The notes under the pieces are model-generated. The model did no database searches and was not told the origin of the DNA. It saw only the letters and a list, made by a program, of their open reading frames with translations. A stretch of DNA of 64,000 bases. Origin: a bacterium. Lineage in GTDB: Bacteria; Hydrothermota; 32-111. The stretch is from positions 3,188 through 67,187 of the forward strand of contig JBFXGO010000001.1 in assembly GCA_050239825.1 (NCBI GenBank), read 5' to 3'. Positions 4,251 to 64,000 of the stretch are shown piece by piece. The translations under genes and the position numbers were made by a program. Each line of letters begins with the position of its first letter. The stretch's first letter is position 1.

Positions 4251-4265
4251 GCCGGTACGCTAACA

Positions 4266-4996
4266 GTGTCACCCTGAACGCCTCTGTGGTTATGACTATC
4301 GTGAAGGGTCTATCAGTTTATTGATAATTGAAGATTGAGCTGGGGCTACTGGCGGGCGTAGCGTCGGCTCGCACACTCCGCTTCGTCGCTTAATCAAGAT
4401 GGGATGTTGTGGGGACACACCGTAGGAATGTCCCCAAACCACTTGATGGGCGTCTGCGCGTAGCGTCCTCGCCGACTTGTAGCTTACGAGTATCAATATT
4501 TGTTATGGGGACACACCGAAGGAATGTCCCCAAATCTTCACAAACCATTGGCGCGGGTGTAATGGACGCGAGCGTCCATGATAGAAAAGAACGGGTTGCA
4601 CCAGAAGTTTTAGAAGATTAATGTAAAGACAAAATATTAATCAGCTCCCCGTATTTTGCTCATGGCACATGGCACACGGCTCAAGGCTGACTTGGTGGCT
4701 ACACGCAGGCATAGCGTCGGCTCGCACACTCCGCTTCGTCGCTTAATCAAGATGGGATAGCGGAGCAAGGGGAGAACCACTTGATGGGCGTCTGCGCGGA
4801 GCGTCCTCGCCGACTTTGAGCTTTCACTTTCAATAAGAATTGACTTGCTTGTCCTCGGAAAAACATTGAATAGCAGTGCGGAGATGCACTGGAATTTTTC
4901 CTCGGAACTGTAAAGGCAAGTTATTTAATCAGCTCCGCGTATTTTGCTCAAGGCTCATGGCTCAAGGCTGACTTGGTAGCTACCGGCGGGTATGCC
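4266..4996. repeat. Cluster A of a modular structured intergenic repeat family. It holds two 'core' units plus accessory modules and is non-coding.
   Basis: Core starts at about 4354 and 4709 (gggcgtagcgtcggctcgcacactccgcttcgtcgcttaatcaagatggga ... ccacttgatgggcgtctgcgcgKagcgtcctcgccgac). Hairpins GGGGACACACCGWAGGAATGTCCCC at 4411-4435 and 4507-4531. Module ggtgtaatggacgcgagcgtccatgatag...gggttgcaccagaag at about 4555-4620. The same modules recur at 21.4-22.4 kb. Confidence 0.85.
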
Positions 4997-6685: not shown

Positions 6686-9600
6686 AGCACTGCTTTTCTC
6701 TCTTTCTTTTATTGCCATTGCTCTGTTTTCTGCGGAGAATATTACAGTCTCTACAAAGGGTCTGAAGATAGAGTATTCGCCGGTTTATGTAAATAACAGG
6801 CTCACAGACTGCGCGATTGAAAAGAATGTTTTAATCAAGTATCTCTATATTAATGTTCCCGAAGGGGCAGTGAGGGTTCATGTGGGTGATGCAGAATGGA
6901 AGAGAAATGAAGGGGAGTCCGACAGGAAGATTGTTTCGAAACTATATGACCTGCAGTATGAGTATGCCGGAAGACAGAGAATTTTAAGAATAGCCCTTTA
7001 TCCTGCCAGAAAACAGGGGAGTGACACATATACCCTTAAAAGAGTATTTATAGAGGTTGATTTTGAAAAAGCGCTCTCTAAGAGCGGAAAAGATAACCCA
7101 CTCTTTGCGTCAAGCCTCAACAGAGAGTTTGTATCAAAGGGATTTATGTCGGAGAGGTCGGACAGAATTCCTTTCATGTCTTATCTTGATTTGAAAGTTA
7201 AGGATAGCGGCATCTACAGAGTAGATTATAAAACAATTAAAGATGCGGGGATTGACCCGCAGAATTTGTCGGTGGGGAATTTTGGTCTTTACACTCAAAA
7301 AAATGTCATGCTTCCAATAGATACTGCTGAATTTTTAAGTTATCTGAACCCGCCGAAAACACCCTATTTATTTGTGGGGGATGATGATGATGATTTTGAA
7401 GATGGTGAGTATATTCTCTTTTATGGTGAGTCCCCAAATGGAGATTCCATTAATTTCTACATGAATTACGACATTTACAACAATCCATTTTCCGATTACA
7501 GGCATTATATGCTGGTATTCAATGATAAAAATCCGATTAAAGCCAACAATCTCGTTTTCTCCTTTGAGAAAGATGAGCATCGAATATTCAATGAAAAAGT
7601 GATGCACTATGATTCCATAAATCCTCTTCTTTCCGGATACGGTTGGGTGTGGAAAAAATTCTCTTTGGTTAAAGATTCAGGCGACTTTGAATATGAGTTT
7701 GATTTTGAAACTCCGGACTTTGCAGGCGAATCATGCACCATCTCCCTCTCATTCTTTTTCCCGAATGGAGGAGACACTTCTACAGTTGAAGTAAAGATGA
7801 ATGATTCTTTTCTTGGAACAATCGAGTATGGAACGGAGATGAGATACACCCCCGCCGTATTTTCTTTTTCTTCAAATAATCTGGCAGCAAACAACAAAGT
7901 TATTCTCACTGCAAAGAATATTGACAACCTTACAAAATCATTCTATCTCTCGGAATTCAGGGTAAAGTATGAAGCAGACACAGACAATCCTGATGACATA
8001 GTCATTAAGAATGCTTCATTCAGATACCTTAATTTAAATCCGACGAGTGATATATACTGTTTTGTAAAGAATGGCGGCAACTACTATCTCGGCGGCATTG
8101 CCGCAGGAGAAAACATATCCTTGGACATTTTAAGCGGTGAATTCGCCTTTCTGACAAATGAAATCAAAAAACCTGAAAATGCAAGATGGGTTGACAACTC
8201 AAAAATATATGCGGATATAGAGGGATGCGATATACTGATTATTGCAGGCGACAATTTCCGGGAGGCGGTTATTCCCTATACGCAGTACAGGAAAAGTCAA
8301 GGTTATATAGTCAAGACGTTTGAAATAGGCAGAATAGCGGATGCTTTCGGTTTCGGAGTCTCATCTCCATCCGCTGTAAAGGCTTTTCTTGAATACGGAT
8401 TCAGGGAATGGAAAAACTTCCCGGAGTATCTTATTCTACTCGGCTCCGGTTCATACGACTTCAAGAACAGACAGAACATTCATGAAAACCGCAATGTTGT
8501 TCCTGTCTATGAAACCGGTTACGGAATCTTTGAAGAGGCTCTTTTAAGCGCCTCCACGACATGGTGTGTCGACAGATGGTATGCCCTGCTGACAGGCGAA
8601 GACCAGTATATAGATATTATTCCCGGAAGAATAACCGCAATGAACAGAGAGGAAGCATTTGATGCTCTGCTCAAGGTTATTGATTATGAGACAAAGACGC
8701 CGACATTCATGAAGAACAAAATGATGGTCATTTCCGACGATGAATACGGAGGAAGGATCAGCGAAACATTCAATGAGACAGGTTTTTTTGTCGACGCAGA
8801 GGACCTTTCAGGCCTTCTTGAGAGCAGATTCCCAGTGAGGAAGCTTTATTTAATGGATTACATCGGAAGTCTGCAGGGTGACGAAGAGCATTGGCCTTAT
8901 AATCCGGGTTATAAAAGAGATGTCCGCTTTGTCATCAGAGACTATCTCAATGAAGGAATTGCCTACGGTTTCTTTTACGGACACGGGTCTTACTATACAT
9001 TGACTCACGAACACATTCTCCTATATCCGGATGACATTGAACTATTAGACAATACCAACAGGTATCCGATATTTTTATTCGGCACCTGTCAGGTCGGCCA
9101 GTTCGACAATGATTTCGGAGCAATAGGGGCGGAGTTCCAAAAACTTCCGAAGTCGGGATTTTCTGCAGTAATTGCATCTACAAGGGCGATATTCGAATAT
9201 GAAAGCGTCAGCATACTTTATAACTCATTTGCCTCAAATCTGATTGCCGGAGGCTTCAATACGATTGGCGAATATTACCTTTCAATGATAAATGACGGCA
9301 GATACTTCAGCACAAGCCATGTGCTTTTCGGAGACCCTTCCATGAGAGTCAAAAAGCACCTCTTTGATGTTTCTGTTCTTACGGAAGACACTTTGATGCT
9401 CGGGGCTTTAAACGACATAGGATACGATGCGGAATTCGATTTCATCGGACCAATGTCCGTCGATTTATACCAGCCTTTTTACACAGACTCGCACGATTAC
9501 CTCCATATTCTGCCTTATGCTTACCTCTACTATGTTAAATCAGACGGTGTGATGAGCAGAACAGAGACGAAGATCGATTCAAACACATTATCAGTCTATC

Positions 9601-19083: not shown

Positions 19084-20005
19084 AAGGATCTGTGTACTCT
19101 ATGGAGGACCTTCCAAAGAGAGCGAAGTATCAAGACGCTCTGCTCTAAGGATAAACCATGCTCTACTAAAGAAGAATTATAACTGCAAGCTTCTTGAATA
19201 CAACGAAGACATAGTGAATTCACTGAAAGGAAATTTTTCCGCAATCTTCAATATAATGCACGGCAGACCCGGAGAGGATGGACTCGTGCAGGGAATATTT
19301 GAACATCTGAAGATACCCTATACCGGCTCCGGAGTAATTCCAAGCGCAATCACGATGAATAAGTACATAAATCAGCAGGTCGTAAAATCTTTCGGTGTTC
19401 CGGTTCTTAAATCCGTTTATGTTAGCAGGGAGATTATCGAAAAAGATCCTGATATAATTGAGAAGAGTTTTTCATCTCCTGTGATACTGAAACCGAATAC
19501 AGGAGGTTCCTCCGTGGGAACATTCATTTCATCCTCCAAGGATGCATTTTTGAAATTAAAAGAAAAGACAGCAGAATTCGGCGACTATATTGTCGAAGAG
19601 TATGTGGAGGGCGGGACAGAGGTGACTGTCGGTGTAATCAAAGACAATGGCGTAAAGATTTTGACTCCTCTGCAGTTGATTCCCAAGAATGCATTTTATG
19701 ATTATCATGCAAAATATACTTCGGGAATGACTGATTTTGTAATGCCCCCGAAATTAAGGAAAGATGTTATAGAAAGAATGATGAACATAAGCAGAGAGAT
19801 CTTCATAAATCTGAGAATGGACACATTTGCAAGAATTGATTTTATTGTCACAAAGAACGATGAACTCTACGAGCTTGAAGTGAATTCGATACCCGGAATG
19901 ACCGACCTTTCCGATCTTCCGCAGGAGGCCGAGTTTGACGGAATTGAATACGGCGACCTTGTGGAAAAACTTTTAAAGACTGCGGGAGTGAACAAAGATG
20001 CTTGA
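19076..20005 (+). CDS. ddl: D-alanine--D-alanine ligase.
   Basis: N-terminal CVLYGGPSKESEVS, ATP-grasp motifs ILKPNTGGSSVG and EEYVEGGTEVTVGV, and FYDYHAKYTSG. Confidence 0.9.
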   Translation: MDERICVLYGGPSKESEVSRRSALRINHALLKKNYNCKLLEYNEDIVNSLKGNFSAIFNIMHGRPGEDGLVQGIFEHLKIPYTGSGVIPSAITMNKYINQQVVKSFGVPVLKSVYVSREIIEKDPDIIEKSFSSPVILKPNTGGSSVGTFISSSKDAFLKLKEKTAEFGDYIVEEYVEGGTEVTVGVIKDNGVKILTPLQLIPKNAFYDYHAKYTSGMTDFVMPPKLRKDVIERMMNISREIFINLRMDTFARIDFIVTKNDELYELEVNSIPGMTDLSDLPQEAEFDGIEYGDLVEKLLKTAGVNKDA

Positions 20006-21308
20006 CGGATTGACATCAAAAATAAATAAGATTTTTCAGAATCTGAAAAACAAGGGAAGGGTGACGGACGAGGATATAAAGCTAACCATGCGCGAGATAC
20101 GCCTGGTGCTTCTGGAATCGGATGTGAATTACCTTATAGTCAAGGATTTCATCAAGAGCGTTGAAGACGAAGTGAGGGGACAGGATGTTTTAAAATCTTT
20201 AAAGCCCGAGCACATAATCATCAAGGCAGTCAATGATAAGATGGTAGAGATGCTATCCCATGGTGACATGAGAATTCATTTTAAAGGAAATCCCTCGGTT
20301 GTGATGCTTGTCGGTTTGCAGGGAACGGGAAAAACCACAACTGCCGGAAAGCTCGGCGCTCTCTTCAACAAACAGAACAGGCGCACAATGCTTGTGCCTT
20401 GCGATGTGAAGAGGCCTGCGGCATATGAACAGCTCAAGCAGGTTGCTGAAAAGACAAAGTGCCTTTTCTTTGACAGAATGTCTGGCGACCCGCAAAAAAC
20501 CGTTGCGGATGCCTTAAAAGATGCGCAGGAAAAGAATATTGACACTCTGATTCTTGATACTGCAGGGAGGCTCCACATAGATGATGAACTGATGAATGAA
20601 CTTGTAAATTTAGAGAAAAAAATCAAACCATCCGAAATTCTTTATATCGGTGATTCCATGACCGGACAGGATGCTGTTAAGAGCGCCGCCGGTTTTAAGG
20701 AGAAACTGAATTTGACGGGGATTATTCTGACGAAAATGGATGGAGACCAAAAAGGAGGAGCGGCACTCTCAATAGTCAAGGTGGCAGACTGCCCTATAAA
20801 ATATATTTGCACAGGCGAACATGCTGACAAGATTGAGGAGTTTCATCCGGAGCGTCTTGTTTCAAGGATCCTTGGGATGGGGGATATTCTCTCTCTTGTG
20901 GAAAGAGCTGAGGACCTTGTCTCTAAGGAAGAAGCTGAGAATATGGAGAAGAAACTTCTTGAAGGAAGATTTGATTTTGAAGATTACCTTGGACAGATAA
21001 AACAGATAAAGAAGATGGGACCATTAAAAGAGATTCTTAAAATGATACCGGGAGTCGGAGCGAAAATAAAGACCACTGGCGAGGAGGAGGAGAATCTGAA
21101 AAAAGTAGAGGCGATAATTTCGTCTATGACAAAAAAAGAAAGAAAGAATCCGCTTCTTCTCAATAACAAAAGCAGGATTAAGAGAATCGCCTCAGGAAGC
21201 GGCACAAGCGTGGCAATGGTCAAATATGTCATAAATCAGCATAAGAATATGAAAAAGATGATGAGTATGTTCAAAACCAAGGGATTCAACCCCAATAATT
21301 TCCGATAA
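19998..21308 (+). CDS. ffh: Signal recognition particle protein Ffh.
   Basis: GTPase motifs GLQGTGKTTTAGKL, DTAGR and TKMDGD. Met-rich M-domain at the C-terminus. Confidence 0.95.
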   Translation: MLDGLTSKINKIFQNLKNKGRVTDEDIKLTMREIRLVLLESDVNYLIVKDFIKSVEDEVRGQDVLKSLKPEHIIIKAVNDKMVEMLSHGDMRIHFKGNPSVVMLVGLQGTGKTTTAGKLGALFNKQNRRTMLVPCDVKRPAAYEQLKQVAEKTKCLFFDRMSGDPQKTVADALKDAQEKNIDTLILDTAGRLHIDDELMNELVNLEKKIKPSEILYIGDSMTGQDAVKSAAGFKEKLNLTGIILTKMDGDQKGGAALSIVKVADCPIKYICTGEHADKIEEFHPERLVSRILGMGDILSLVERAEDLVSKEEAENMEKKLLEGRFDFEDYLGQIKQIKKMGPLKEILKMIPGVGAKIKTTGEEEENLKKVEAIISSMTKKERKNPLLLNNKSRIKRIASGSGTSVAMVKYVINQHKNMKKMMSMFKTKGFNPNNFR

Positions 21309-21407
21309 CCTTTATTTCAGCCATCCTGAACGAAAATTCTTAGGGACGGTGGTTTCAAAAAGCTGGGTTTTTCAAACATCAAAAACATGAGTAATCAAGA
21401 AATATTA

Positions 21408-22403
21408 GGGGCTGCACGCGGGCGTAGCGTCGGCTCACACACTCCGCTTCGCCGCTTTATCAAGATGGGATAGCGTAGCAAGGGGTTGCCCACTTGATGG
21501 GCGTCTTCGCGGAGCGTCCTCGCCGACTTTGAGCTTACGTGTTTCAATATTTGTTATGGGGACACACCGAAGGAATGTCCCCACATTGGCGAGGGTGTAA
21601 TGGACGCGAGCGTCCATGATAGAAAAGAACGGGTTGTACCAGAAGTTTTAGAAGATTACTGTAAAGACAAAATCTTACTCAACCGTGTCACCCTGAACTT
21701 TGCTTTAGTTATGACTATCGTGAAGGGTCTATCAGTTTATTGTTAATTGATTATTGAAGATTGTTCGGGGGCTGTTGTCGGGCGTAGCGTCAGCTCGCAC
21801 ACTCCGCTTCGCCGCTTAATCAAGATGGGTTAGCGGAGCAAGGGGTTGCCCACTTGATGGGCGTCTGCGCGGAGCGTCCTCGCCGACTTGTAGCTTTCAC
21901 TTTCAATAAGTTATTTAATTGATTGAATCTTCACAAAGCATTGGCTGGGGTGAAATGTGCGCGAGCGCACATAATAGACGTCTCGGGTTGCACCAGAACT
22001 TTGCGAAGATTATTGAAAAGAATAAATATTAATCAGCTCTCCGTATTAAGTTCATGGCACACGGCACAAGGCTCACGGCTGATTTGGTGGCTGCTGACGG
22101 GCGTAGCGTCGGCTCACACACTTCGCTTCGCCGCTTTATCAAGATGGGATGTTGTGGGGACACACCGAAGGAATGTCCCCAAACCACTTGATGGGCGTCT
22201 GCGCGGAGCGTCCTCGCCGACTTTGAGCTACGAGCATCAATAAGTTAATTAATTGCCTGTTGCAGTGGGGACACACCGAAGGAATGTCCCCACATTGGCG
22301 AGGGTGTAATGGACGCGAGCGTCCATGATAGGAAGAACGGGTTGCACCAGAAGTTTGTGAAGATTACTGTAAAGAATAAATATTAATCAGCTATCCGTAT
22401 TGT
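21408..22403. repeat. Cluster B of the same structured repeat family as cluster A: three core units and three or four accessory modules. Non-coding.
   Basis: Cores at about 21419, 21779 and 22098. Hairpins GGGGACACACCGAAGGAATGTCCCC at about 21551, 22157 and 22271. Module ggtgtaatggacgcgagcgtccatgatag at about 21590 and 22297, with a covarying variant ggtgaaatgtgcgcgagcgcacataatag at about 21944-22010. Confidence 0.85.
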
Positions 22404-22465
22404 ATTTAAACTCGTAACTGAATTATATGTCAGTTCATTATTTATGACAGTTTTGGAATCATAGA

Positions 22466-22498
22466 CAAAAAAAAGCCCCCTTGAAAGGGGGCTTTTTT
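22466..22498 (-). terminator. Rho-independent terminator downstream of the minus-strand ompA-like gene; it reads on both strands.
   Basis: aaaaaaaaGCCCCCTTgaaaAGGGGGCtttttt: perfect GC-rich 8-bp stem, GAAA loop, flanking A/T runs, immediately after the stop at 22507. Confidence 0.8.
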
Positions 22499-22506
22499 CA
22501 AAGCAA

Positions 22507-24390
22507 TTATTCGCCGAGAATCAAAAATTCTATTCTTCTGTTTAATGCTCTTCCGTCCTTTGTGCCATTGTCGGCAACAGGCATCATTTCGCCGAAGCCC
22601 TTTGCTACAACTCTCATAGGGTCTATTCCATGGGACACGAGATAATTCCTCACAGATTCGGCTCTTGCCTGAGAGAGAGAAAGGTTTGATGAATCGGAGC
22701 CGACAGAATCAGTGTGCCCCTGAATTTCTATTCTAACCTTCGGGTTGTCATTTAAAAGTTTTACAGCCTCATCAAGCGCATAGAATGATTCCGGAAGTAT
22801 TGTAGCTTTTCCGCTCTCAAAGTAAATTCCCCTGAGAGTTATCTTTCCGCCCTTCTTAAGCATTTCAATATTAAGAATGAGAGTCTTGTCAGCTTCCACG
22901 ACAACAGGCATTGCATAAGATATGTAACCTTCTGCAACTGCGGCGATTGTGTATGTGCCCGGGTCGAGAGTTATTCTGTAAACACCTGTGGCGGCATCAG
23001 GCAAAATCTCCGGAATTCCTGTCTGAGGGAATGAAATCTTGGCAAGAAGAGTCTCTCCCGAAGCTTTGTCCGAGACCTTTCCCGTGATTATTCCCTTTTC
23101 CACCTTCTTGGGGTTCAGAGCAAAATCAACAATCTTCGTCTGTGCCTTTTCTATAATGACACCCTTCTCCTGCCACTTGAATCCCTCTCTCTCTGCGCGT
23201 ATTCTTATTGTTCCGGGATTGACTGTAATCGAGTAGATTCCCAATGAATCGGAGACTATGCTCACTGAATCGCTGTATCCCGGGAATGTTATTATTGCCG
23301 ACATGGGCACTCCGGTCTCTCCGTTTATTACTTTGCCGGTGATGATGGTCTTCGGCTCCTCTTTCTTTACAATGATTTCCTCTTTTTTGAAATCATAATA
23401 ATATGTGAGGCCGAAATATGCTTTCCAATCGGGTGCTCCGCCCCATCCGTCGCTTAGGAGGAATGTGTCATTAACTGAATTATGTATCGGTTCAAGGTCG
23501 GGCAAAAATTTAGGTATTCTATAGTCAGCGCCGAAGTCAATCACAAGTCCTATCGGAGTATCGAATCTCACTCCGCCGGACATATAATACACATATCTGG
23601 CATCAAACATTCTTGAAGCATTGTATTTGAATCCGTAAACTTCAATAAATGGAATGAAAGAGCCGAATTTAATAGACAATCCTCCTGCGAAATCTATCAG
23701 AGTGGGATTATTGCCTGCCGGCATATTGACTAATTTTGTATAGCCTCCGTTGAGGTTTATTCCGAGCGGGACCTGAGAAGATGTGACAAATGAAATCAAT
23801 CCGCGCACTCCCCAGTCCGCTCCGTTTGTTGTGAACTTCCTGAATATTCCTCCGTCGTTCTTGATGTAATCTATTGAAAATGATGAGGCATTGGACTGCC
23901 CGGGAGTGTAAAGGTCGCCTGTTGTGAAGCGATAGAATCCAAGTACTCCTATGTCCGCATTCTTCGTTGCTCCGAAGAGTCCGCCTGTAGTCAGCTTAAG
24001 ATTGACCTCAGTGTCGCCGAAGCCGTAACTGGCGTAGTTGGTATTTTCATCCGCTCTTCCTGGCGCCTCCGGAGTGTCAATAGCATCGATGAAACCTTCG
24101 GAGACCACGCTCACTTCAAGCCAGTTTGTAAAAGAGTATCCTATACCGAACTGGATGCCGCCTCCCGCATATGTGTCCCATGAATGGTATGTGGAATCAT
24201 CAATTACCGAGACATAATCCACCATGAAATCACGGGTAAAGCCGTTTATATGAAAACCGAGCTGAAGCCTCTGTTCCTGTATAATCGCGCCGACAGAGTG
24301 CAAAAGACCTGAGGAAGTGTAGAGTGAGGGCGCCGCTGACAAATTCAAAATAAATAGCAATGCCAACACAATAAGAGTCAGTTTCTTCAT
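22507..24390 (-). CDS. OmpA-family outer-membrane protein with carboxypeptidase-regulatory-like domains.
   Basis: Signal peptide. C-terminal OmpA domain (NPKVRIEIQGHTDSVGS...NRRIEF). Two CarbopepD_reg-like segments (GKVINGETGVPMSA..., GKVSDKASGETLLA...). Confidence 0.8.
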   Translation of the reverse strand: MKKLTLIVLALLFILNLSAAPSLYTSSGLLHSVGAIIQEQRLQLGFHINGFTRDFMVDYVSVIDDSTYHSWDTYAGGGIQFGIGYSFTNWLEVSVVSEGFIDAIDTPEAPGRADENTNYASYGFGDTEVNLKLTTGGLFGATKNADIGVLGFYRFTTGDLYTPGQSNASSFSIDYIKNDGGIFRKFTTNGADWGVRGLISFVTSSQVPLGINLNGGYTKLVNMPAGNNPTLIDFAGGLSIKFGSFIPFIEVYGFKYNASRMFDARYVYYMSGGVRFDTPIGLVIDFGADYRIPKFLPDLEPIHNSVNDTFLLSDGWGGAPDWKAYFGLTYYYDFKKEEIIVKKEEPKTIITGKVINGETGVPMSAIITFPGYSDSVSIVSDSLGIYSITVNPGTIRIRAEREGFKWQEKGVIIEKAQTKIVDFALNPKKVEKGIITGKVSDKASGETLLAKISFPQTGIPEILPDAATGVYRITLDPGTYTIAAVAEGYISYAMPVVVEADKTLILNIEMLKKGGKITLRGIYFESGKATILPESFYALDEAVKLLNDNPKVRIEIQGHTDSVGSDSSNLSLSQARAESVRNYLVSHGIDPMRVVAKGFGEMMPVADNGTKDGRALNRRIEFLILGE

Positions 24391-26232: not shown

Positions 26233-26503
26233 AAATGACTTTACAAAGATACTTGAAGATAAGAAGATAAAGATAAGCATGGACGGCAAGGGTCGTGCTG
26301 TGGATAATATCTTCATAGAGCGGTTGTGGAGAACAGTTAAATATGAGCATGCTTACATCTGGAGGTTTGATACGATTAAAGAGCTAAGAGAAGGACTAAA
26401 AGATTACTTTGATTACTATAACAATAAAAGAGAGCATCAATCATTAGGATACAAAACTCCATCTGAAGTTTATGGAGGTATTATAAATGTTCAAACAGCT
26501 TAA
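26233..26503 (+). pseudogene. IS3-family transposase (OrfB) C-terminal remnant.
   Basis: ...FTKILEDKKIKISMDGKGRAVDNIFIERLWRTVKYEHAY...YYNNKREHQSLGYKTPSEVY is the characteristic tail of the IS3 integrase-core domain. The DDE core and OrfA are missing. Confidence 0.75.
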
Positions 26504-26533
26504 TAATAAACACAATTTATCAAAATCTTGTGT

Positions 26534-26562
26534 CTTGACAGGAGAGACATTATCCAATAAAA
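26534..26562 (+). promoter_or_regulatory. Sigma70-type promoter TTGACA-N17-TAAAAT for the restriction-modification operon.
   Basis: Consensus -35 at 26534-26539 and -10 at 26557-26562, 25 nt upstream of the proposed ATG at 26588. Confidence 0.5.
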
Positions 26563-26587
26563 TATATATGTATATTTTAATTAAAAC

Positions 26588-28079
26588 TATGTCAAACAAT
26601 AATTCTAAATCAACAATAGGAAAAAACCTTAAAAAGATAAGGCCAAAAGAAGATGTTTCTCAGGATCGTTTATCCATGCTGACTGATTTGTCGCTGAATA
26701 CTATTGCTACAGTAGAATCTGGCTTGAATCCAAACCCAACTATTGAAACACCGACAAAAATTACCCAAGCATTAGATGTAAAAGTGGACGACCTAATTAA
26801 AAAAAATATGAGCCAAACTATTACTTCATTATTGAATAAAACAAAAATTGATCCCTCGTGGTCTTTTTCCGATAAAACAAGAAAAGATACGGCGTATATT
26901 ACGCATGGATATCATCGTTACCCCGCAAAATTTATTCCGCAAATAGTTTCTCGTTTGGCGGAAAAATATACGCGAATAGGTGATTTTATTGTTGATCCGT
27001 TCGGTGGTTGCGGAACAACCCTTGTTGAAGCAAAAGTTATGGGACGACCATCAATTGTCGTTGATATTAACCCCGTTGCTGTTTTGATTACGAAAGCAAA
27101 AATCACAGCAATTGATCCTGCTAAAATTGAAAAGGAATTTACAACTTTTCAAAAGAGATTGGAAACTTACAGCGAAAAAACAAAAGTAAAAGCCCCTAAA
27201 CACGAAAGAATTGACTATTGGTTTAAGCCAGAAGAAAAAAGAAAACTTGCTTTTATTCTTGCCGAGATTTCAAAAATAAAAGATCAAGATGTCCAAGATT
27301 TCTTTTTCTGCGGGTTTTCAAACATTCTCAAAAATTGCTCAATCTGGCTACAAAAAAGCAATAAACCAACGAGAGATTTTGATAAAAAGCCTTCAGAGCC
27401 GATTAAAGCATTTTTGAAACAAATAAAAATGATGTTGCGTGGTAATGCACGATTATTTGAATTGTTATCAGAAAAAGGTTATTTAAAAATTCCGAGCAAG
27501 GTGATTTGCACGGATGCAAGAACAATTCCGGCAAAAGATAATAGCGTTAGTTTGATTGTTACTTCGCCTCCTTATGTAACCTCTTACGAATACGCCGATT
27601 TACACCAGCTCACTGCTTTATGGTTAGAATATACCATAGATTTGAGCGACTTCCGAAAACGATTTATTGGCACTTCATATCACAACAAAAAAGATTTAAC
27701 TCTTAATAGCGTGATTGCAGAAAATATCAGAAAAAAATTGTTAGAAAAAGACAAAAAAACTGCCGAGGAAGTTTCAACATACTTTAGCGAAATGAATCAG
27801 GTATTTGTTGAAATGAAAAGAATATTAAAGAAAGGCGGGAAAACCTGTATTGTTATTGGCAATACGAGCTTAAAGGGCGTTGAAATACTTAATGCGGAGG
27901 TTTTTGTTGAGCAATTACAAAACTTGGGATTAAAAATCGCTGATATTATCAAAAGAGAAATTCCGTCAAAAAATTTGCCGTCCGTTCGAGACGAAAAGAC
28001 GGGTAAATTTGCGAGCATAAATGATAAAAATAGAGTTTCTGTTTATCCAACAGAATACATTTTGATAATGGAAAAATAA
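26588..28079 (+). CDS. DNA amino-methyltransferase (N6-adenine or N4-cytosine) with a fused N-terminal XRE-family HTH domain.
   Basis: HTH IGKNLKKIRPKEDVSQDRLSMLTDLSLNTIATVESG. AdoMet motif I HRYPAKFIPQIVSRL...GDFIVDPFGGCGTT. Catalytic motif IV IVTSPPY about 185 aa downstream. The ORF-track start at 26487 is rejected (it lies upstream of the promoter). Confidence 0.8.
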
Positions 28080-28083
28080 AACT

Positions 28084-28752
28084 ATGACTATAGACGACCT
28101 TATCAAAATTTACGAAACAAAAAAGAAAAAATATGGCATAGAAGCATATCGTCATATTTCAAATGTTTTGAAAGAAGCAAAGGAATTGCACAAAAAAGAT
28201 TTTACAGGTGATGATCATGAGCAATCATGGCGCGCTTTCAAGGGTAAAAATTTAGAAAAAATGATTGAATATATTATAACAGACGAGGTTAATGCTCTTG
28301 GGTTACAAGTAATAAATGGCAATAGCCTTGAAAGGACGAATGGATCAAACCTTTCAAAAGAGTTGAGTTTAGTTAAAAGAAATTTGATTGTTGATTATGG
28401 CGAGTTCGGCTCGCATTTGCCCGATGTAGATTTGATTATTTACGACCCAAACACAAGCAAAGTTGTCGCTGTTTTATCAAGCAAAGTAACTTTACGGGAA
28501 AGAATAGCCCAAACTGGTTATTGGAAAATAAAACTTGCCTCCGACGAAGCGACAAAACATATCAAAGTTTATTTCGTAACGCCTGATGAGGACGGAACGC
28601 TAACGATTAAAACACCTGCGAAGAAAGGACGAGCTATTGTTGAAGTAGACACAGACGGCAGTTATGTTTTGAGTGAGACGGACATTGAGGAAAGTAATAA
28701 AGTAAAAATGTTTGACAAGTTTATCGATGACTTGAAAAAGCTATTGAAGTAA
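28084..28752 (+). CDS. Putative type II restriction endonuclease (222 aa).
   Basis: Sandwiched between two MTase genes with 4-nt and 3-nt spacers. Acidic/lysine cluster ...YGEFGSHLPDVDLIIYDPNTSKVVAVLSSK... is compatible with a PD-(D/E)xK-like site. No other homology recognised. Confidence 0.45.
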   Translation: MTIDDLIKIYETKKKKYGIEAYRHISNVLKEAKELHKKDFTGDDHEQSWRAFKGKNLEKMIEYIITDEVNALGLQVINGNSLERTNGSNLSKELSLVKRNLIVDYGEFGSHLPDVDLIIYDPNTSKVVAVLSSKVTLRERIAQTGYWKIKLASDEATKHIKVYFVTPDEDGTLTIKTPAKKGRAIVEVDTDGSYVLSETDIEESNKVKMFDKFIDDLKKLLK

Positions 28753-29848: not shown

Positions 29849-30532
29849 ATGGATAAACTTCAAATAGAATCAACAACACTTTGGGATTTTCCGAGACAAA
29901 ATTATGGTGACAAGCCACATGGAAACAATAAATACAATGGCGTAACGCCGGCTTTTGTCATTTGGAATTTACTCCAAAGATATACCAAAGAGGGTGATTT
30001 AGTTGTCGATCCGATGTGCGGGAGCGGAACAACAATTGATGTTGCAAAAGAATTGAACCGAAAAGTAATCGGCTATGATTTGAATATTGTTAGGTCCGAT
30101 GTAATTAAAAACGATTCTCGGAAAATCCCGCTTGCGGACAATTCTGTTGATTTTGTTTTTATTGATTCACCATACTCCGATAATATTAATTATTCTGACA
30201 ACAAGGAATGTATCGGTAAAATTTCTTGCGAGAAAACAGAATTTTATGATGAATTAGAAAAAACCGCTTCCGAAATTGCAAGAATTTTGAAGCCAGGAAA
30301 AGTTATGGGCTGGGTTATTGCTGATCAATGGATTAAAAAGAAATTTACGGCTGTTGGATTTTTGATGTGGCAAAGATTGGAAAAACATTTTGAGCCTATG
30401 GATATTGTTTGTTTAACAAGACACAATCAAACGTCAAACACTGGAGTTTGGCACAACAGAGCAAGGCAGTTTAATTTTTATTTAAGAGGTTTTAAATATT
30501 TGTTTATAATGAGGAAGCCAGAAAATAAATAG
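29849..30532 (+). CDS. Small DNA amino-methyltransferase (227 aa).
   Basis: Motif I context NGVTPAFVIWNLLQRYTKEGDLVVDPMCGSGTT (pfam01555-like). Motif IV FIDSPY about 50 aa later. Then RILKPGKVMGWVI. Confidence 0.75.
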   Translation: MDKLQIESTTLWDFPRQNYGDKPHGNNKYNGVTPAFVIWNLLQRYTKEGDLVVDPMCGSGTTIDVAKELNRKVIGYDLNIVRSDVIKNDSRKIPLADNSVDFVFIDSPYSDNINYSDNKECIGKISCEKTEFYDELEKTASEIARILKPGKVMGWVIADQWIKKKFTAVGFLMWQRLEKHFEPMDIVCLTRHNQTSNTGVWHNRARQFNFYLRGFKYLFIMRKPENK

Positions 30533-40442: not shown

Positions 40443-41819
40443 ATGAGAATAACATTTTTCGGAGCAACTCGCACGGTGACAGGTTCAATGATGCTGATAG
40501 AGCACAAGGAGAAAAAGATACTTATGGAATGCGGGCTCTTTCAGGGAAGAAGAAGCGAAAGCGAGGAGCTGAATCGCCACTTCCCGTTTGACCCAAAATC
40601 AATAGATATGGTTATAATCTCTCATGCCCACATAGACCACAGCGGTAATCTTCCAAACCTTGTCAAGCAGGGGTTTGAAGGCGATATTGTTGCAACTCAC
40701 GCAACTCTGGACCTTCTTGATTTAATGCTTAGAGACAGCGGACATATTCATGAGAAGGACATAGAGTATCTGAACAAAAAACTGAAAAAGAAGAACGAAC
40801 CTCCAAAAGAGCCGCTCTATACTGTAAAGGACGCCGAACATGCGCTCAGGCATCTGAAGGGATATAGCTACTACAGCACGGTTAAAATAGATGATGACTT
40901 GCAGTTCTCTTTCATTGAGGCAGGCCACATACTCGGTTCTTCCCAGATACTTTTTGAAAACAAAGGCAGAAAGATTCTCTTCACGGGAGACATCGGAAGA
41001 GACCATATGCCTATAATAAGAAATCCGGACAATGTAAGCGATGTGGATGTTCTTATAACCGAATCTACATACGGAGACAGAACCCACAGAAATATCAAGA
41101 TGTCTCAGGATGAGCTTAAATCAATAATTGAGAAGACGCATGCTAAGAGGGGCAATCTGGTGGTGCCCTCATTTTCTGTGGGCCGCACTCAGGAGATTTT
41201 GTTTGACATCTACAACCTAAAGAGGGATAATGCAATACCTCAAATGAAGATTTTTGTGGATTCTCCGCTTAGTTCCAATGTGACGGATGTTTTTAAAAAC
41301 CATCCTGAATGTTATGACACCGAGATGATGTCTCTCTTCAACTCGAAGGAGAATCCTTTCGAGTTTGACGGACTTTACTACATAACCGATGTGGAGGATT
41401 CCAAACAGCTGAATATGCTGAAAGAACCGTCCATAATAATTTCATCAAGCGGAATGTGCGAAGCGGGAAGAATACTGCACCACCTCAAGCACAACATAAC
41501 AGAGAAGAGGAATACAATTCTTGTGACCGGATTCATGGCTGAGAATACATTGGGAAGAAGAATCGCCGAGAGAGAGAAGAAGGTAAAAATATTTTCGGAG
41601 GAGTTTCCGCTTAAAGCGGATGTTTATATAATGAATGAATACAGCGCTCATGCGGATAAGAATGACCTGCTCAGGCATGTGAAAAATTCAAATCCCAAAA
41701 AGATTTTTCTTGTGCACGGCGAGGCGGGGCAGATGGACTCATTTGCAAAGACGCTTGATTTGAACGGCTACAAATCAGTCGAAAGACCTGTAAGGGGAGA
41801 GGCTCATGACTTCAGCTGA
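40443..41819 (+). CDS. MBL-fold beta-CASP ribonuclease (RNase J/CPSF-like RNA-metabolising metallo-beta-lactamase).
   Basis: ISHAHIDHSGNLP, then beta-CASP motifs and a C-terminal RNA-specificity region. 458 aa. Confidence 0.8.
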   Translation: MRITFFGATRTVTGSMMLIEHKEKKILMECGLFQGRRSESEELNRHFPFDPKSIDMVIISHAHIDHSGNLPNLVKQGFEGDIVATHATLDLLDLMLRDSGHIHEKDIEYLNKKLKKKNEPPKEPLYTVKDAEHALRHLKGYSYYSTVKIDDDLQFSFIEAGHILGSSQILFENKGRKILFTGDIGRDHMPIIRNPDNVSDVDVLITESTYGDRTHRNIKMSQDELKSIIEKTHAKRGNLVVPSFSVGRTQEILFDIYNLKRDNAIPQMKIFVDSPLSSNVTDVFKNHPECYDTEMMSLFNSKENPFEFDGLYYITDVEDSKQLNMLKEPSIIISSSGMCEAGRILHHLKHNITEKRNTILVTGFMAENTLGRRIAEREKKVKIFSEEFPLKADVYIMNEYSAHADKNDLLRHVKNSNPKKIFLVHGEAGQMDSFAKTLDLNGYKSVERPVRGEAHDFS

Positions 41820-42699
41820 AGAGAATCTTCTGAAAGAGTACTACTCATATCTCCTTTCTGAAAGAAGCTGTTCAAGAGAGACCGCCGACTACTACATGAC
41901 CGATATATCGCAGTTAATTAAATTCATTGAGGGGACAGGTCATGGAGTTTTTGATGCCACATCAAAAGACATAAAAGATTTTTTCAATTCTCTGGCGGAT
42001 GTTGAGGCGAAGCACACTACAATGTCAAGGAAACTTTCAAGCATTAAAAATTTTTATATATTTCTTATGTCTGAGAATAAAATAGAAACAGACCCTTCCG
42101 AGAACATTGAGACTCCGAAGCTGAACAAATCACTCCCGGATGCTTTGACTATAGAGGAGATAAACTCTCTCATGGAAAGCATATCCGGCGATGACTGGAG
42201 ATCTATTAGGGACAGGGCGCTTCTTGAAACCATATACGGATGCGGTCTCAGAGTCTCGGAATCAACTTCAATGACTCTTGAATCTGTCAATTTCAAGGAA
42301 GAGTATGTTATAGTGCTCGGAAAGAGAATGAAGGAAAGGATTGTTCCGATAAGCAGAAAAGCATTGACAGCTCTCTCAAACTACATTGAAAAATCAAGGT
42401 GTGTTTTGAACAACAAACAGTCGAAGTACCTTTTTCTCAATAGATTCGGCACTCAGCTCAGCCGTATGTCTGTGTGGAGTATTTTAAGAGAGAGAGCGGC
42501 AGCGGCGGGAATTACGGCGAGAATGCATCCCCATATACTCAGGCATTCATTTGCCACACATCTTTTAGAGGGTGGCGCCGATTTGAGAAGCGTTCAGGAG
42601 ATGCTTGGTCATTCGAGCATCCTTACAACAGAGATATACACTCATGTCAGCAGAAAGTTCATAAAGGAAATCTATAATGCATATCATCCCAGGAGCTAA
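41806..42699 (+). CDS. Tyrosine site-specific recombinase, XerC/XerD family.
   Basis: Catalytic R...HPHILRHSFATHLLEGGADLRSVQEMLGHSSILTTEIYTHV (RHRY tetrad with Tyr nucleophile). 297 aa. Confidence 0.85.
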   Translation: MTSAEENLLKEYYSYLLSERSCSRETADYYMTDISQLIKFIEGTGHGVFDATSKDIKDFFNSLADVEAKHTTMSRKLSSIKNFYIFLMSENKIETDPSENIETPKLNKSLPDALTIEEINSLMESISGDDWRSIRDRALLETIYGCGLRVSESTSMTLESVNFKEEYVIVLGKRMKERIVPISRKALTALSNYIEKSRCVLNNKQSKYLFLNRFGTQLSRMSVWSILRERAAAAGITARMHPHILRHSFATHLLEGGADLRSVQEMLGHSSILTTEIYTHVSRKFIKEIYNAYHPRS

Positions 42700-62770: not shown

Positions 62771-64000
62771 GTGAAAAAAGTTATTTTCATTATCATTATT
62801 ATTGTTTCAGCATTGTTTATTTTTGCTTCAAATGAGAGAGCATTCAGAGAAGAGGATATGCTTCTTGTTAACTTTGAACAACCTGAAGATTACAATCAAC
62901 CCAATTGGGCGACAGATAGTTTGAATGTAAGGGGAGTAGGGAAATATGATACACCGGGTTATGCATTGGGTGTCTATGTTTCAGGAGATTATGCCTATGT
63001 TGGTGATTATGATTATGGTTTACAGATAATAGATATCTCAAATCCTTCAAGCCCAACCCTTAAAGGTAGCTATGTTACACCGAGTTATGCAAGGGGTGTC
63101 TATGTTTCAGGCAGTTATGCTTATGTTGCTGATGAGGATTCTGGTTTACAGATAATAGATATCTCAAATCCTTCAAGCCCAACCCTTGCAGGGAGCTATG
63201 ATACACCGGGTTATGCTTATGATGTCTATGTTTCAGGCAGTTATGCCTATGTTGCTGATGTTAATTATGGTTTACAGATAATAGATATCTCAAATCCGAA
63301 AAGCCCAACCCTTGCAGGGAGCTATGATACGGATTGTGCATTGGGAGTCTATGTATCAGGCAGTTATGCCTATGTTGCTGATGATGATTGTGGTTTACAG
63401 ATAATAGATATCTCAAATCCTTCAAGCCCAACCCTTGCAGGAAGCTATGATACACCGGGTTATGCTTATGATGTCTATGTTTCAGGCAGTTATGCCTATG
63501 TTGCTGATGGTAGTTCTGGTTTACAGATAATAGATATCTCAAATCCGAAAAGCCCAACCCTTGCAGGTAGCTATGATACATCGGGGAGGGCTTATGGTGT
63601 CTATGTTTCAGGCAGTTATGCCTATGTTGCTGATGAGGGTGATGGTTTACAGATAATAGATATCTCAAATCCTTCAAGCCCAACCCTTGCAGGAAGCTAT
63701 GATACACCGGGTCGTGCATTGGGTGTCTATATTTCAGGCGATTATGCCTATGTTGCTGATTATAGCGCATTATATATTTTAGAGTTTGTTCCCGACACTA
63801 CTTTTCCAAGCGCATTTAACCTCATCTCACCGATAGGCAATATAACAGATGACACACCCACATACCTATGGAATAAATCTTATGATGATTATTTTTCCAA
63901 TTACAAACTCTATGTAAACGACACATTGAAAGCGACGATAACAGATACGACATGGACTCAACCGGCGGGACTGACAGATGGCCAGTATGTGTGGTATGTA
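62771..64000 (+). CDS. LVIVD-repeat beta-propeller protein. 5' partial; it continues past the window end and is absent from the ORF track.
   Basis: AGGAGG RBS 4 nt before GTG 62771. Signal peptide VKKVIFIIIIIVSALFIFAS. Seven near-identical 42-aa blades GSYDTPGYAxxVYVSGSYAYVADxxxGLQIIDISNP(S/K)SPTLA. The frame is open to nt 64000. Confidence 0.75.
   Translation, partial: MKKVIFIIIIIVSALFIFASNERAFREEDMLLVNFEQPEDYNQPNWATDSLNVRGVGKYDTPGYALGVYVSGDYAYVGDYDYGLQIIDISNPSSPTLKGSYVTPSYARGVYVSGSYAYVADEDSGLQIIDISNPSSPTLAGSYDTPGYAYDVYVSGSYAYVADVNYGLQIIDISNPKSPTLAGSYDTDCALGVYVSGSYAYVADDDCGLQIIDISNPSSPTLAGSYDTPGYAYDVYVSGSYAYVADGSSGLQIIDISNPKSPTLAGSYDTSGRAYGVYVSGSYAYVADEGDGLQIIDISNPSSPTLAGSYDTPGRALGVYISGDYAYVADYSALYILEFVPDTTFPSAFNLISPIGNITDDTPTYLWNKSYDDYFSNYKLYVNDTLKATITDTTWTQPAGLTDGQYVWYV
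62942..63780 (+). repeat. Tandem repeat with a 126-bp period (one unit is 123 bp), about 7 copies at very high nucleotide identity, encoding the LVIVD blades.
   Basis: Recurrent gtctatgtttcaggcagttatgcctatgttgctgat...ggtttacagataatagatatctcaaatcc(t/g)(t/a)caagcccaacccttgcagg(a/t)agctatgatacaccgggt. It generates spurious antisense ORFs. Confidence 0.85.

Follow-up and report, generated by a model that had tools for sequence, protein, structure and literature searches.

A modular non-coding repeat array inserted between ffh and an ompA-like gene, and its copies at other loci

The array between ffh and the ompA-like gene

This report concerns an array of non-coding repeats in a 64 kb stretch of bacterial DNA (contig JBFXGO010000001.1 of assembly GCA_050239825.1), which we call the window; all window coordinates refer to the full stretch. 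The array lies between the stop codon of ffh, the SRP54 gene, and a terminator that ffh shares with a convergent ompA-like gene (Table 1), exactly the placement described in an earlier reading of the DNA (the original prediction). The distance from the ffh stop codon (21308) to that of the ompA-like gene (22507) is 1198 bp. The array consists of three direct units, each about 350-355 bp long, with start-to-start spacings of 360 and 319-354 bp. Within the 64 kb, its modules recur only in a second cluster, cluster A, and every core, hairpin and linker in the two clusters runs in direct order on the + strand. An identical Ffh protein is present in a metagenome-assembled genome (MAG) at NCBI and in a Logan assembly; among the Ffh matches, the nearest named relative is Candidatus Stahlbacteria, at 79% identity, and WOR-3 comes next at 64%. 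The open reading frames (ORFs) of the window include housekeeping, cell-envelope, polysaccharide and restriction-modification genes.

Table 1. Coordinates of the array, its modules, the flanking genes and cluster A in the window
Feature	Position	Strand	Remarks
Cluster A of the repeat family	4254..4995	+	J1, core A1 (hairpin apex), HP2, J2, core A2 (19-20 nt apex), variant HP2, J2, truncated core start
ffh (SRP54) gene	19998..21308	+	Pfam SRP54_N/SRP54/SRP_SPB; stop codon 21306-21308
Entire inserted non-coding array, ~1158 bp	21309..22466	+	Missing in six relatives
Left module, contains TTAGGGACGGTGGTT at 21340-21354, ends ...AATCAAGAAATATTAGGGGCTG	21309..21411	+	78-82% identical to L001 2794-2870 and L002 327-192
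Core B1, long imperfect hairpin HP1, 19-20 nt apical module at 21471-21489	21412..21535	+	nhmmer E=1e-38; fold -55 kcal/mol
GGGGACACACCGAAGGAATGTCCCC hairpin in linker (GGGGACA)	21558..21582	+	Exact copy
H2 hairpin ATGGACG-CGAG-CGTCCAT	21600..21617	+	Stem covaries with B2 and L001a
HP2 3' arm (GGGTTGTACCAGAAGTTTTAGAAGATT) and tail	21618..21680	+	95% identical to 4546-4643; pairs with AATCTTC... where the 5' arm is kept
Junction module J1 (gtcaccctgaac ... tcagtttattg)	21681..21757	+	87% identical to 4262-4338, opening module of cluster A
Core B2, HP1, 19-20 nt apical module	21772..21895	+	Alignment of units, nhmmer
Complete HP2 of unit B2 (AATCTTCACAAAG ... CTTTGCGAAGATT), H2 variant ATGTGCG-CGAG-CGCACAT at 21955-21972	21926..22012	+	Fold, alignment
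Tail (TTAATCAGCTC) and junction J2, heptamers (CAYGGCW)x4 at 22053-22080	22029..22090	+	87-89% identical to 4637-4681 and 4925-4969
Core B3, HP1, 34-nt apical hairpin module	22091..22229	+	93% identical to core A1 at 4344-4484; fold
Unit B3 linker GGGGACA hairpin (22267-22291), H2 (22309-22326), HP2 3' arm, tail	22267..22400	+	69 nt 99% identical to 21557-21625
Right flank of insert	22401..22466	+	Small hairpin TGTCA..TGACA; no second match in window; not in the relatives' empty sites
Bidirectional intrinsic terminator AAAAAAGCCCCCTTGAAAGGGGGCTTTTTT	22469..22498		Common to ffh and the convergent ompA-like gene; kept in all six relatives
Convergent OmpA-family gene, 627 aa	22507..24390	-	Pfam OmpA and CarboxypepD_reg

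The anatomy of the units was obtained from an alignment of all units plus folding; loci retrieved from other genomes are referred to by L numbers. The core, of which the array contains the three copies that had been predicted (B1, B2 and B3), is an imperfect hairpin of 124-139 nt, named HP1. It reads GCGTCGGC-TCACAC-ACTCCGC-TTCGCCGCTTW-ATCAAGATGGG up to the apex and CCACTTGAT-GGGCGTCTGC-GCGGAG-CGTCCTC-GCCGAC after it, and it is extended by an AT-rich distal stem such as TATTGATA/TATCAATA or ATTGAA/TTCAAT. Across 10 copies from four assemblies, 98.4% of the HP1 cells are paired. The apex comes in two versions at the same position, as had been noted originally: B1 and B2 have a 19-20 nt module (TAGCGKAGCAAGGGGTTGC), and B3 has a 34-nt module bearing a GGGGACA hairpin. 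The cores are about 55% GC in a genome that is 40% GC. An invariant 21-mer, CCACTTGATGGGCGTCTKCGC, occurs five times in the window versus zero expected, as does the 25-nt GGGGACA hairpin (five versus 0.00 expected). The three GGGGACA hairpins reported for the ffh-ompA spacer are all there as exact copies, two of them in linkers and the third in the apex of B3 (22156-22180).

An AT-rich linker, with or without an extra GGGGACA hairpin, separates HP1 from a second hairpin, HP2, whose outer stem (AATCTTCWMAAA...TTTWRGAAGATT) is tipped by a small apical hairpin, H2. Three H2 stems are found (ATGGACG/CGTCCAT, ATGTGCG/CGCACAT and ATGTGTG/CACACAT); they are 100% paired, and three of the seven pairs have compensated changes. 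At L010, L004 and in unit A2 of cluster A, other hairpins with different sequences occupy the H2 position. The 5' outer arm of HP2 is missing from three of the eight units (B1, B3 and L001a). The original prediction counted three or four copies of a short module here; GGACGCGAGCGTCC has two exact copies (21602 and 22311), and the other one is a covarying variant, GTGCGCGAGCGCAC, inside 21955-21972, so the count does not hold for identical copies.

The tail that follows HP2 contains TTAATCAGC, and the junction modules are of two kinds, J1 and J2, the latter with four CAYGGCW heptamers. The first unit of the ffh array has the left module with TTAGGGACGGTGGTT before its core. The match between the module at 21684-21750 and positions 4266-4330, which had been called almost base for base, does exist (21681-21757 versus 4262-4338), but it is 87% identical over 77 nt and bases 13-22 differ.

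The segments that are 93-99% identical between units adjoin segments that are about 80% identical, and this argues that the arrays are mosaics shaped by recombination and not simple tandem duplications. In L005, a Logan assembly made independently from the same organism, the sequence breaks off within the left module (window position 21369), so how many units the array has depends on the assembly.

Some short motifs have their own distributions. Besides the heptamers of the ffh array, CAYGGCW heptamers precede cores in cluster A at 4661-4688 and 4949-4975, and elsewhere the same position has ATCRCTRGTCC-type 11-mers, another sequence (L001 3150-3185, L002 190-150 and L004 7385-7415). The left-module motif TTAGGGAYGGTGSTT (GGGGACGGTG) also occurs solo, without a core, downstream of genes in relatives (L001 6153, L004 4008, L004 7058, L007 8491 and L003 5924). 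About 100 nt around the solo motif are common to L004 7000-7090 and L001 2735-2830, and a minimal GTGGGGAGTGTCCCCAC hairpin is present in L007 (Stahlbacteria CG23) at 8561-8573. The modules may be of greater age and wider distribution than the composite element.

Empty sites and copies at other loci

Six relatives whose Ffh proteins are 79-86% identical to that of the window (L006, L007, L008, L015, L016 and L017) have the same gene order, i.e., ddl, ffh and the convergent ompA-like gene. The ffh-ompA spacer in all six is only 39-71 bp long and has no modules; the ffh stop codon is directly followed by the terminator, AAAAAGCCCCC..GGGGGCTTTTT, and then by the stop codon of the ompA-like gene. 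Since the window keeps this terminator while the spacers of the relatives stay short, the comparison indicates that about 1158 bp were inserted between the ffh stop codon and the ancestral terminator, in the window lineage alone. The insert junctions are TAA|CCTTT... and ...ATAGAC|AAAAAAAAGCC. No target-site duplication beyond a single A is present at the junctions of the window array; the L010 copy, described below, is flanked by AAA and AAT.

Cluster A tells a similar story, for which one syntenic site was compared, in the MAG STE_119 (L018). The distance between the TPR gene and cdd is 790 bp in the window and 113 bp in STE_119, where the spacer has no modules but contains a terminator hairpin and the same ccccTTGACA promoter as in the window. 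The empty sites thus total seven, six at ffh-ompA and one at cluster A, which makes the family a clear case of insertion. STE_119 (L004, L006 and L018) has both window sites empty and carries the element at another place (L004), and the L010 copy and the empty site L015 are from the same metagenome; therefore, the family is present in those communities at other places.

Cluster A may also have affected a neighboring gene. The TPR gene of STE_119 has its own terminator hairpin (GCTGGGGC..GCCCCAGC, L018 5535-5575), which is gone from the window. The only terminator-like site before cdd in the window (4874-4900) is a hairpin, at 4874-4891, plus a T-run inside the variant HP2 of unit A2. Termination of the gene upstream of cluster A may now be provided by the repeat.

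The original prediction had proposed comparing this spacer in related genomes, with either recent mobility or strong functional constraint as the explanation for the conserved modules. The comparison did reveal presence/absence variation, and the seven empty sites bear out mobility. The word "recent" does not stand, because divergence within the genome equals divergence between genomes. Relatives with short, module-free spacers had been considered as a possible refutation if the modules also matched a characterized mobile element with its own transposase; such spacers are what we found, but no match to a characterized mobile element or transposase was found.

An exact-pattern scan for the core, with one genome per species and 185,579 species, found it in only three MAGs. 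They are JBFXJF01, which is labeled Vulcanibacillus (L001 and L002, contig JBFXJF010000028), JAQVDU01, which is STE_119 (L004), and DAKN01, which is labeled Pacearchaeota (L003). A first scan of JGI metagenomes with a 24-mer gave no matches, and a second one gave one further true copy (L010, JGI sample Ga0172375) plus four chance 20-mers in GC-rich contigs. The DNA-level match between the window and L001-L004 or L010 is confined to the element. The modules have been assembled independently in five projects (window, JBFXJF, JAQVDU, DAKN and Ga0172375), each with unique flanks; those of L003 and L004 are nearly the same, and the L003 core contains a stretch of N.

The genes beside the copies differ everywhere. 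They include a UDP-GlcNAc 2-epimerase, a DUF6880 gene and hsp20, each followed by a copy, as well as AbiEi/AbiEii and DUF4143 and DUF234 ATPases; one copy is upstream of an OmpA-like gene, on its 5' side. Five of the seven loci are co-oriented with the upstream gene and follow right after its stop codon (both window clusters, L001a, L004 and L010), two of these five being sites between convergent genes, and the other two loci are divergent from the neighboring gene.

Several copies are incomplete or nested. For example, a half core at L001 7783-7853 (truncated copy 7783-7836) is interrupted by a new left end, L002 has a half core at 261-193 and L010 has an internally deleted copy at 471-398. 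Such truncated and nested copies point to an element that moves or recombines. A perfect 14-bp inverted repeat, TGTATCCGTTCCGAG...CTCGGAACGGATACA, marks both ends of the full copy at L010; it begins with TG and ends with CA and extends to 28 nt at 79% (2575-2602 and 2903-2930). Its left arm recurs at the deleted copy.

The taxonomic labels of two of these contigs deserve comment. The flanks of the L003 contig (DAKN01000088, 'Candidatus Pacearchaeota UBA284') are nearly identical to those of the STE_119 contig of L004, so that a bacterial contig has probably been misbinned here. The 'Vulcanibacillus sp.' label of the L001/L002 contig is doubtful because the contig encodes an OmpA/CarboxypepD_reg protein that is 40% identical to that of the window. 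The elements can thus mislead binning, and they break short-read assemblies at housekeeping loci.

The same JBFXJF010000028 contig has two copies with the same left module of about 170 nt in opposite orientation (L001 2690-8000 and L002 1-430). If the two 8-kb stretches are contiguous, these copies bracket the AbiEi/AbiEii toxin-antitoxin pair and the DUF4143 ATPase within a polysaccharide gene cluster, and at the L001/L002 boundary two cores would lie head to head. Either a composite-transposon-like island or an assembly join could explain this arrangement. L004 7178-7290 and L003 5975-6095, just upstream of the element copy, each contain a promoter close to the consensus (TTGACA-17-TATACT with TG) and, some 40 nt farther on, a strong terminator hairpin, GAAGCTCAAGGGAGAAC..GTTCTCTTTTGAGCTTC; this pair may represent a leader or the gene of a small RNA.

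Conservation, related repeat systems and interpretation

The conservation of the core is not that of neutral DNA. Between the window and STE_119, ffh and the ompA-like gene agree at 38-42% of their fourfold-degenerate sites, i.e., these sites are saturated. In contrast, the 5' arm of the core is 87% identical within the window and 79% between genomes, and the 3' arm is 96% identical within the window and 91% between genomes; the linkers, apex and tail are 56-66% identical within the window and 42-66% between genomes. Core A1 is even 96.9% identical to the L002 core. Strong functional constraint, the alternative offered originally, thus agrees with a core that stays 79-91% identical between genomes. 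Because the core is conserved between genomes as it is within the window, and because both apical versions are present in two genomes (the window and the JBFXJF contig), the family seems to be old, with its core held by selection, either for a mobilizing enzyme or for a host function. The same puzzle, selfish maintenance or host function, is posed by the enterobacterial repetitive intergenic consensus (ERIC) elements.

Compensatory changes occur in HP1 as well as in H2. Twenty-four of the 32 HP1 pairs never vary, and two of the 32 are fully compensated, with G.U and C.A intermediates; an example is the change from CTCCGC/GCGGAG to CTTTGC/GCAAAG. Read on the + strand, HP1 has two invariant U.G pairs, and G.U-type changes are found at five sites versus two sites for A.C-type changes, which would lean weakly toward a + strand transcript or + strand single-stranded DNA.

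The units do not code for protein and resemble no catalogued RNA. No conserved reading frame is present in the units, no tRNA or tmRNA genes were found in the repeats, and no sigma-70-like promoter or intrinsic terminator was found inside the units of the array. Rfam 15 gave no repeat match in the window at the gathering threshold, in 21300-22520 at E<=10 or in six related loci at E<=0.01; its only matches were chance ones, at the terminator. Six translated element frames, concatenated, had no match in a set of 5.8 billion protein clusters, a negative that says little about the Logan and ENA assemblies, and an exact look-up of nine element ORFs in the protein collection found none. A 25-aa small ORF, with an ATG in H2 after GAGG, is open in B2, B3 and L001a, frameshifted in A1 and B1 and absent from L004 and L010, and all four differences between B2 and B3 are non-synonymous, so we rejected it as a coding sequence. 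No match to the element was found in plasmids, phages or IMG/VR viral contigs.

Other identities were also rejected. An integron attC array (CALIN), in which RYYYAAC / GTTRRRY core sites bound the palindromes and unrelated cassette ORFs separate them, does not fit: the hairpin bases, GCGTCGGC and GCCGACTT, have no attC-type R/L boxes, the DNA between the cores is repeated and non-coding, and the window has no integron integrase, only a XerC/D-like recombinase. A CRISPR array, with identical repeats of 25-40 nt and unique spacers of about that length, is contradicted by the period of 354-360 bp and by 'spacers' that are themselves repeated modules, and a tRNA-derived element by the lack of tRNA genes. 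Mimicry of the RNA of the signal recognition particle (SRP), suggested by the ffh neighborhood, is contradicted by the lack of an SRP model match and by cluster A, which is unrelated to ffh. A CsrA-type sponge, based on AAGGAA in the loop of the GGGGACA hairpin, was given low weight; there are five such loops, and no csrA gene was seen in the window.

Much is known about the small interspersed repeats of Proteobacteria, Firmicutes and Cyanobacteria. The ERIC elements, also called intergenic repeat units (IRUs), are 127-bp imperfect palindromes of the Enterobacteriaceae, and the core of about 125 nt is likewise an extragenic imperfect palindrome, located in what would be transcribed 3' regions. 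Presence or absence at orthologous sites, conservation between species far beyond that of neutral DNA and longer variants made by an insert at a fixed internal position are further similarities. The two differ in that there is no sequence similarity (blastn of the full unit against 5,426 complete E. coli genomes gave no match), the core is only one module of a unit of about 355 bp that forms direct arrays, and the window copies lack TA-flanked terminal inverted repeats or duplications. The BOX elements of Streptococcus pneumoniae (boxA-boxB(n)-boxC) are also modular, non-coding and non-autonomous, with a variable number of internal modules and long stable RNA structures predicted in untranslated regions (UTRs), where expression can be affected. 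However, their sequence and host phylum are unrelated, and the window units are larger, with a core that has two apical versions. MITEs (miniature inverted-repeat transposable elements), such as Correia, RUP, Nezha and Chunjie, are like these repeats in being non-coding, shorter than 500 bp, folded into long hairpins, polymorphic in insertion and dependent on a transposase in trans, the last being presumed here, and the L010 copy has perfect 14-bp terminal inverted repeats. The window clusters, however, have neither terminal inverted repeats above chance nor recognizable target-site duplications, form tandem mosaic arrays instead of single insertions and have no known parent insertion sequence.

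The original prediction had compared the array to repetitive extragenic palindromes (REPs) and the bacterial interspersed mosaic elements (BIMEs) that they form. A REP unit is a GC-rich palindrome of 20-40 bp, one end of which bears an unpaired tag, GTAG or CGTC (PMC3733652). The BIMEs of E. coli and its relatives are mosaic clusters of GC-rich hairpins with a few conserved linker modules, are located after stop codons and between convergent genes, and form clusters that are tandemly repeated together with flanking DNA (PMC3733652, PMC3184786), all of which resembles the array. In BIMEs, however, the REPs alternate in orientation, whereas the window modules are all direct and the main hairpin is 124-139 nt long. 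The 25-nt GGGGACA hairpin is REP-sized but untagged, its 5' flanks being TGTTGT, TGTTAT and TGCAGT. The base of the core's 5' arm does contain a GTAG-CGTC (GGGCGTAGCGTCGGC), but its partner arm is about 100 nt away. The resemblance therefore stands for niche and kind and not for membership, as there is neither a tagged 20-40 bp REP nor an alternating orientation.

We assign a probability of about 60% to the explanation that the array belongs to a new, lineage-specific family of non-coding, non-autonomous modular repeats of the MITE/ERIC/BIME/BOX kind in Stahlbacteria-like (WOR-3) genomes. As judged by sequence comparison, the family is not related to REP/BIME, MITE, ERIC or BOX elements. The basic element is about 350 bp long and consists of the left module, the hairpin core, the AT-rich linker, HP2 with its variable tip and the tail. 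Such elements have inserted outside genes, right after stop codons; at ffh the insertion point lies between the stop codon and the terminator that was already there. Direct arrays would have grown by addition or duplication of units plus recombination between copies, which would produce the observed mixture of more and less similar segments. Since no copy has an adjoining complete transposase gene, any movement would depend on an enzyme encoded elsewhere and acting in trans, and the strongly conserved core is the most likely structure for recognition. Because nothing terminates transcription between ffh and the array, the array would presumably be transcribed as a structured 1.16-kb 3' UTR of this essential gene, and its hairpins could alter the decay of the ffh mRNA in the way that REP, ERIC and BOX elements do.

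Several observations count against this explanation. Terminal inverted repeats in the window clusters do not exceed the shuffled expectation, no recognizable target-site duplication is present, and no parent element or transposase was found in the 64 kb of the genome or the retrieved loci. Direct arrays of units of about 355 bp are unusual for MITEs, and the equal divergence within and between genomes agrees with long-term functional maintenance no less than with selfish spread. Furthermore, the three of eight units that lack the HP2 5' arm imply that not all of the modules are needed.

The main rival explanation is one that we consider possible, though on the unlikely side: HP1 and HP2 would form a structured RNA with a function for the host, as a cis-acting 3'-UTR element or a processed small RNA (e.g., a protein-binding scaffold or a sponge), kept by selection on RNA structure and sequence, with spread being secondary or occurring by duplication and recombination. 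This explanation and that of a mobile repeat are compatible with each other and not exclusive. The compensatory changes in H2 and HP1 would fit it, and so would the hairpins of differing sequence at the H2 position of A2, L004 and L010; however, covariation in HP1 is thin, the loops are as invariant as the stems, and quasi-palindrome correction at the DNA level also yields compensatory changes. The U.G pairs and the excess of G.U-type changes, the retention of both apical versions in two different genomes and a core conservation well beyond the neutral expectation agree with an RNA too. Five of the seven loci follow a co-oriented gene, within its 3' region and ahead of the terminator, but the other two are divergent from the adjoining gene, the host genes are different at each locus, and at ffh six relatives manage without the element. 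In addition, there is no Rfam family, even at E=10, and no promoter or terminator within the units. A more specific version, that the core of about 125 nt with its two apical domains plus HP2 is a previously undescribed structured RNA or nucleic-acid recognition module under strong purifying selection across Stahlbacteria, we regard as unlikely. If true, it would mean that such a module is delivered into the 3' UTRs of housekeeping genes, with titration of an RNA-binding protein, 3'-end processing or mRNA stabilization as possible effects; alternatively, the core and HP2 could be the substrate of an undescribed hairpin-specific recombinase.

The hairpins, cruciforms and direct repeats (CAYGGCW and ATCRCTRGTCC) might instead act as DNA, as sites bound or cleaved by a nucleoid protein, gyrase or a site-specific recombinase, the arrays being chromosomal organizing or recombination sites. 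BIMEs, which bind integration host factor (IHF), gyrase and Pol I (PMC3184786), provide a precedent, both paired and unpaired positions of the core are invariant, short direct-repeat modules are present ahead of the cores, and the inverted copies of JBFXJF010000028 appear to bracket the AbiE/ATPase island. We nevertheless consider this improbable: there is no partner protein nearby, the sole recombinase of the window being XerC/D-like and 19 kb away, there are no attC-type R/L boxes or cassette ORFs, and the single orientation of all window copies would be needless for a symmetric DNA site. An assembly artefact or a decayed gene remnant is very improbable. Short-read assemblies do break at the element, as in L005 and at the N run of L003, but the independent assemblies with unique flanks speak against an artefact, and the absence of a conserved frame, the frameshifted or missing 25-aa ORF and translated frames without protein homologues speak against a remnant.

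A full-text literature search on the lineage name found no title or abstract concerning repeats in uncultured WOR-3/Stahlbacteria.

Other features of the window

About 55 ORFs of the window were scanned or had already been annotated with Pfam, and no complete transposase, reverse transcriptase or integron integrase was found among them or among the neighbors of the other copies. Likewise, no REP-associated tyrosine transposase (RAYT, a Y1 HUH transposase) was found among the ORFs of the window and the retrieved loci. The only recombination-related items in the window are the XerC/D-like recombinase (41806-42696) and a 74-aa ORF (26279-26500), which matches only the C-terminal integrase core (rve_3/rve_2) and is a transposase remnant. 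The latter is at the edge of a restriction-modification island with N6_N4 methylases (26487-28076 and 29849-30529) and a BsaWI-like endonuclease (28084-28749). No similarity to the repeat family was seen around the fragment and the island, in a search that included no comparison aimed at matching element ends.

The window also has a tandem repeat of a different nature, with a period of 126 bp, 6.5 copies and 86% matches, inside a coding region at 62829-63881. It probably encodes LVIVD-type beta-propeller repeats, like those of the LVIVD protein encoded at 562-2733.

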